From assembly GCF_003334335.1 (NCBI RefSeq), contig NZ_QOWQ01000024.1: 64,000 nucleotides of DNA. One strand, written 5' to 3'. Shown here piece after piece: positions 63,914 to 64,000 of this stretch; position 1 is the first letter of the stretch, and every line of letters begins with the position of its first letter. The notes under the pieces are model-generated. The model was not told the origin of the DNA. It made no database searches and was given only the letters and a program-made list of their open reading frames with translations. This DNA comes from Escherichia coli (lineage in GTDB: Bacteria; Pseudomonadota; Gammaproteobacteria; Enterobacterales; Enterobacteriaceae). The translations under genes and the position numbers were made by a program.

Positions 63914-64000
63914 GGAATTATCCCATAAGCGCTAACTTAAGGGTTGTGGTATTACGCCTGATATGATTTAACGTGCCGATGAATTACTCTCACGATAACT
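63914..64000. mobile_element. probable terminal inverted repeat and first ~85 nt of an IS186-like (IS4-family) element, truncated by the window end
   Basis: cataagcgctaacttaagggttgtggtattacgcctgatatg... matches my recollection of the IS186 end; IS186 lies next to yfeA in E. coli K-12. Confidence 0.5.

Follow-up and report, generated by a model that had tools for sequence, protein, structure and literature searches.

IS10 and IS50 are cut-and-paste elements of the IS4 family, and transposases of this family are defined by a Y-(2)-R-(3)-E-(6)-K signature located downstream of the third acidic residue. IS186 (= IS421) belongs to the same family and resembles IS10 and IS50 in having a DDE transposase with a DDE_Tnp_1 domain, the Y(2)R(3)E(6)K motif, short inverted repeats and a target duplication. 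It differs from them in its far stricter target motif and in the variable or ambiguous length of its duplication; for IS186, a hairpin-intermediate chemistry like that of IS10 and IS50 is putative. Within the family, IS186 has been placed in the IS231 group (PMC5009759, Table 1). Its target is 5'-GGGG(N6/N7)CCCC-3', the core of which is duplicated upon insertion, and only 19 N6 target sites were reported for the K-12 genome (PMC5009759). The element, its target motif, its hotspot behaviour and the K-12 copy between nupC and pdeA are already known. That K-12 copy, IS186C of MG1655 (insL3, b2394), is the same element at the same site, with the same duplicated target GGGG-AATTAT-CCCC, as the copy described here; in IS186C, however, the 5' end of insL faces nupC and its 3' end faces pdeA, whereas in our sequence the 5' end of insL faces pdeA. 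The IS186 insertions in the lon promoter, found in E. coli B and in spontaneous K-12 mutants, likewise occurred at a hotspot of the GGGG(N6/7)CCCC kind. The lon insertions split a promoter and produce a selectable Lon-deficient phenotype, whereas the target in our sequence is a predicted terminator between convergent genes.

The window, by which we mean the whole 64,000-nt stretch of E. coli DNA that was analysed, reads ...ctgattaaCAGGCGTAAAAAAACCGGGGAATTATCCCATAAGCGCTAACTTAAGGGTTGTGGTATTACGCCTGATATGATTTAACGTGCCGATGAATTACTCTCACGATAACT at its end. Positions 63924-64000 are the left, insL-proximal end of IS186, an element of the IS4 family and IS231 group; the explanation set out below as a whole, including how the element came to lie here, is considered very likely. 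These 77 nt were found at 8459 matching places, with an identity of ~100%, in 2188 of the 5426 complete E. coli genomes. The best match was at least 99% identical in 2749 of the 2758 records that matched the segment (E = 1e-31), and all matches were annotated 'IS4-like element IS421 family transposase'. The left end of IS186C in MG1655 is identical to the segment at 77/77 positions, and the MG1655 feature 'insertion sequence:IS186C' contains insL3, annotated as 'putative IS186/IS421 transposase'. In addition, the 23-bp repeat CATAAGCGCTAACTTAAGGGTTG occurs only once in the window, at 63924-63946, where the expected number is 0 even with 3 mismatches allowed. A chance resemblance to IS186, considered as a candidate explanation, was ruled out by the genome matches together with the single occurrence of the repeat against an expectation of 0. 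The features at the end of the window are as follows.

61706-63895, + strand: pdeA (yfeA), c-di-GMP phosphodiesterase gene, the upstream neighbour; TAA stop codon at 63893-63895
63903-63924, no strand assigned: left remnant of the split two-way terminator (predicted), with A7 at 63903-63909, stem arm CCGGGG at 63910-63915, loop AATTAT at 63916-63921 and CCC at 63922-63924
63913-63924, no strand assigned: left copy of the target-site duplication; longest duplicated string GGGAATTATCCC, 12 bp
63924-63946, + strand: IRL, the left terminal inverted repeat of IS186, 23 bp, CATAAGCGCTAACTTAAGGGTTG
63947-63978, + strand: 5' leader of IS186, from IRL to the insL start codon, 32 nt, 100% identical to IS186 copies
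63979-64000, + strand: start of insL, the IS186 DDE transposase gene; ATG at 63979, 7 codons (MNYSHDN) plus 1 nt, then the end of the window

Sequence identical to that of the upstream neighbour is annotated as pdeA in C122, in a K-12-like strain and in MG1655. The longest ORF covering this gene extends over 61589-63895, with a GTG start at 61589 and 768 aa, and the equivalent of the RefSeq start is 61706, giving 729 aa. Each IS186 copy is abutted by CCC, which may be reckoned to the element or to the target, and the element begins at 63922-63925 according to this choice. At the canonical target, CCC/GGG can be assigned to the element or to the target alike, and this ambiguity is inherent. The distance from the pdeA stop codon to the element is accordingly 26-29 nt. 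The length of the element depends on the same choice: it is 1345 bp as annotated in MG1655 and 1339 bp when defined by the perfect inverted repeats, and for the copies in C122 and MG1655 together it ranges over 1337-1345 bp with the end convention, encoding a 370-aa InsL.

An earlier note on this DNA, made from the letters alone, had proposed an IS186-like element of the IS4 family beside pdeA, and the complete identity to IS186C and the 8459 annotated matches bear this out. The note had staked the proposal on the existence of matches to IS186 or IS4-family ends, and these proved to be plentiful in complete E. coli genomes. Its boundaries needed correction. Of the 87 nt at 63914-64000 that had been taken as the end of IS186, 77-79 nt are indeed element, but the first 8-10 nt are host target belonging to the left copy of the duplication, so that the element starts at about 63924. 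The element had also been described as lying immediately downstream of pdeA; this corresponds to the gap of 26-29 nt given above.

The promoter and the ribosome-binding region of IS186 presumably lie within the leader at 63947-63978. A consensus promoter scan found no promoter of the element's own inside the IS186 left end. A leader structure that would shield the insL start from read-through was looked for as well, and the leader folded no better than shuffled sequences (z -1.46, +0.34 and -0.36). The sole result of the promoter scan was a promoter-like match in host sequence, TTAACA-18-AATTAT at 63892-63921 on the + strand, directed into the left end of IS186; its -10 hexamer is the duplicated target core. 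Because only 9/12 positions are matched and the same match is also present in the empty site, it bears no sign of function.

The state of the locus before insertion is represented by C41(DE3), a BL21-type strain, which carries no element and has AAAAAAACCGGGGAATTATCCCCGGCTTTTTT between the stop codons of pdeA and nupC. The empty site, GGGGAATTATCCCC, conforms exactly to the canonical IS186 target GGGG(N6)CCCC and is the single instance of this motif in the 5.4-kb empty locus. In the window, the left half of the target is visible at 63912-63924, and no intact GGGG(N6/N7)CCCC target is left within the 64 kb. Both junctions could be read in C122 and in a K-12-like strain, where they have the form ...GGGGAATTATCC|CATAAG...CTTATG|GGAATTATCCCC.... 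The 12-bp duplication shortens to 10, 8 or 6 bp as C, CC or CCC is given to the element, and its core is the AATTAT at 63916-63921. Beyond the end of the window, the rest of insL (1113 nt in full), the right inverted repeat, GGGAATTATCCCCGGCTTTTTT and then the 3' end of nupC would be expected. In terms of mechanism, the DDE transposase InsL inserted the element into GGGGAATTATCCCC between the convergent pdeA and nupC, and the core was duplicated when the staggered cuts in the target were repaired. Transposition would proceed by cut-and-paste, on the model of the family members IS10 and IS50. The G/C arms of the target are symmetric, and therefore the element can enter either way.

The earlier note had likened the arrangement to that of K-12. 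This likeness holds for the site and for the duplicated target, with insL3 of K-12 likewise between nupC and pdeA, but not for the orientation, which is opposite. In MG1655, the order is nupC(+), insL3(+), pdeA(-), with the 5' end of insL next to nupC; in the window this end is next to pdeA, and insL is co-directional with that gene. When MG1655 is aligned in the window's orientation, the match is exact through 63946, that is, through the 23-bp repeat, and the sequences diverge beyond it; the window's 77 nt are found in MG1655 at the nupC-proximal end of the element. Furthermore, C122 and the K-12-like strain show zero differences in 3.9 kb of left flank and 2.2 kb of right flank, and their elements are identical at 1339/1339 nt once one of them is reverse-complemented.

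To count the states of the site, 301-nt queries consisting of 150 nt of flank and 151 nt of element were used, and these separated the states cleanly. The window's orientation was found in 467 and the K-12 orientation in 474 of the 5426 genomes; the remaining ~4485 gave a flank-only match, consistent with an empty site. The genomes with the K-12 orientation include MG1655, W3110, DH5alpha, C600 and J53 together with some natural isolates. Shorter junction queries of 121 nt had returned 981 and 953 genomes; these counts were judged to be inflated, probably by BLAST extending across the wrong junction via the near-palindromic target, and were replaced by those from the 301-nt queries. Among the matches to the 121-nt window-type junction at 100% were E. 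coli C, ATCC 8739, HS and H10407. No mention of IS186 together with nupC was found in the literature searched.

As judged from the sequence, the host of the window is a close relative of K-12 and not K-12 itself. Over 21067-63938, the comparison with MG1655 shows 6 substitutions and 4 gaps in 37.5 kb, none of them in the last 5.4 kb. On the other hand, eutB and eutA are adjacent at ~21067-21089, which means that CPZ-55, the 6.8-kb cryptic prophage splitting the eut operon of MG1655, is absent; because CPZ-55 is missing, the window is not K-12 despite this near-identity. Between the window and NCTC9041, in which the pdeA/nupC site is empty, there are 5 substitutions in ~39 kb. The empty, the window-type and the K-12-type states all occur on essentially one haplotype.

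Other differences in the region were also recorded. The best matches to positions 1-25000 of the window, for example NCTC9041, combine an empty pdeA/nupC site with an IS30 in xapA; in NCTC9041, which is the genome closest to the window over 25-55 kb, this IS30 is inserted in xapA at 30587-31738 of the NCTC9041 stretch. The IS30 and the empty pdeA/nupC site of NCTC9041 show that haplotypes which are nearly identical differ repeatedly in their IS content in this region. At 58452-58607 on the - strand, the valU-valX-valY-lysV cluster of the window consists of one tRNA-Val(UAC) and tRNA-Lys(UUU), against three tRNA-Val copies in MG1655, C122 and NCTC9041; at this place the window is shorter by 242 bp. 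The single tRNA-Val may reflect either a real deletion by unequal crossover or assembly collapse of the tandem repeats. The assembly of the K-12 strain TG1 is colinear with the window across this stretch, in one aligned piece of equal length, and TG1 may carry the same short form. The best matches to 39001-64000 have 2-3 tRNA-Val copies each against one in the window, and none of the best full-coverage matches over the last 25 kb combined a single tRNA-Val with the window's IS186 orientation. An RtT RNA (Rfam RF00391) adjoins lysV at 58296-58421 on the - strand, with 47.3 bits against a gathering score of 45, and is likewise annotated beside lysV in C122 and NCTC9041.

With respect to how the two orientations arose, the most likely history is that closely related lineages, in which the hotspot was empty, acquired the element there independently. 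This history is preferred because all states occur on one haplotype, the hotspot is used repeatedly, and insertion in both orientations has a precedent at lon. In mutation-accumulation lines, 16 independent IS186 events were recorded at one site (PMC5009759), and spontaneous IS186 insertions at one position of the lon promoter occurred in both orientations (PMC3045373).

A single ancestral insertion could also have been flipped in place, through recombination between the 23-bp inverted repeats, extended to ~27 bp by the near-palindromic target; we consider this quite unlikely. It would account for the identity between the two orientations of the element (1339/1339 nt), of the duplication and of 6 kb of flanks, and for the mere 6 substitutions that separate MG1655 from the window in 37.5 kb. 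However, RecA-dependent recombination needs a minimum length of homology, and ~27 bp is close to it. NCTC9041 is equally close to the window and its site is empty, which makes an empty recent ancestor available. In addition, no K-12 derivative is among the window-orientation genomes listed, and all K-12 derivatives listed have one orientation, which indicates that flipping is not frequent. The rarity of IS excision, 1 of 857 events (PMC5009759), speaks for an inversion, as occupied sites would seldom become empty again for re-insertion, but de novo insertion at a hotspot in both orientations has direct experimental precedent in the lon study (PMC3045373). Independent insertion and inversion in place predict identical junctions, and the two are indistinguishable by sequence.

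The window covers only the first 77 nt of IS186, and its completeness is judged from the genomes with the same junction. The remainder of the element, ~1.26 kb, would follow beyond the end of the window. C122 is 100% identical to the last 501 nt of the window and continues beyond the junction with a 1339-bp element containing a 370-aa ORF, followed by nupC. The IRL and IRR of this copy form a perfect pair of 23-bp inverted repeats. Its 370-aa InsL is identical to InsL3 of MG1655, and the first 7 residues are those encoded in the window. The full-length InsL from C122 matched Pfam DDE_Tnp_1 (PF01609) over residues 107-348 at 3.6e-26, scored 133.3 bits against the NCBIfam IS4-family model NF033592, above the curated cut-off of 115, and contains the Y(2)R(3)E(6)K motif as YRLRWQIELAFKRLK at residue 305. 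Every feature examined, namely the left end and the target in the window and InsL via C122, is thus as expected, at the sequence level, for IS186 and for an element of the IS4 family. That the window ends in a solo or shortened IS186 remnant and not in a complete, active element is exceedingly unlikely: the visible IS186 sequence amounts to 77 nt only, and the tRNA-Val cluster, down from 3 copies to 1, makes a local rearrangement or an assembly collapse conceivable, but the junction continues into the element in 467 genomes, the 151-nt IS part of the query is fully covered in the matches listed, the C122 element is complete, and the 77 nt show no mismatch to active copies.

A further observation concerns the interior of the C122 copy. 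On the - strand at 4691-4710 of the C122 stretch, inside IS186, a terminator-like hairpin GCCGGAAAGGGAGCTCCGGC is followed by TTTTTTATTA, antisense to insL. This hairpin could halt transcripts arriving from the right end, but such sites are no more numerous than expected from shuffles.

The sequence occupied by the element has a predicted function of its own. In the empty site, the hairpin is flanked by an A-run and a T-run and folds at -24.4 kcal/mol on the pdeA strand and at -22.7 kcal/mol on the nupC strand (z -5.6 and -5.3), and 0 of 200 shuffles folded as well. In a consensus terminator scan, both strands of the empty site gave terminator-like matches. Once the element is in place, the equivalent stretches have folding energies of -8.8 and -7.0 kcal/mol (z ~0) and lack a U-tract, and the consensus scan found no terminator-like site in the window at 63600-64000. 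The T-tract and the remaining stem of the split terminator now lie past the element, outside the window. From these models, GGGGAATTATCCCC is predicted to be the stem-loop of a bidirectional intrinsic terminator common to the convergent pdeA and nupC and split by the insertion. On the basis of the folding and the consensus scans, neither pdeA nor nupC would retain its intrinsic terminator. With insL oriented as in the window, transcripts reading through from pdeA would run into it as sense and those from nupC as antisense.

For annotation, the junction marks the window as non-K-12 despite near-identity to K-12. The pdeA/nupC site is dimorphic for the orientation of IS186 across E. coli and provides a clean natural case of recurrent hotspot use. 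Occupied and empty strains probably differ in the 3' ends of their pdeA and nupC transcripts. It is conceivable, albeit improbable, that the pdeA/nupC terminator constitutes a two-state IS186 site with regulatory consequences, at which the element flips or is regained either way round. If this were true, it would depend on the orientation of IS186 whether unterminated transcription from pdeA or that from nupC runs into insL as sense, and IS186 activity, or 3'-end processing and antisense interference at pdeA/nupC, would be coupled to the expression of a c-di-GMP or a nucleoside-uptake gene.
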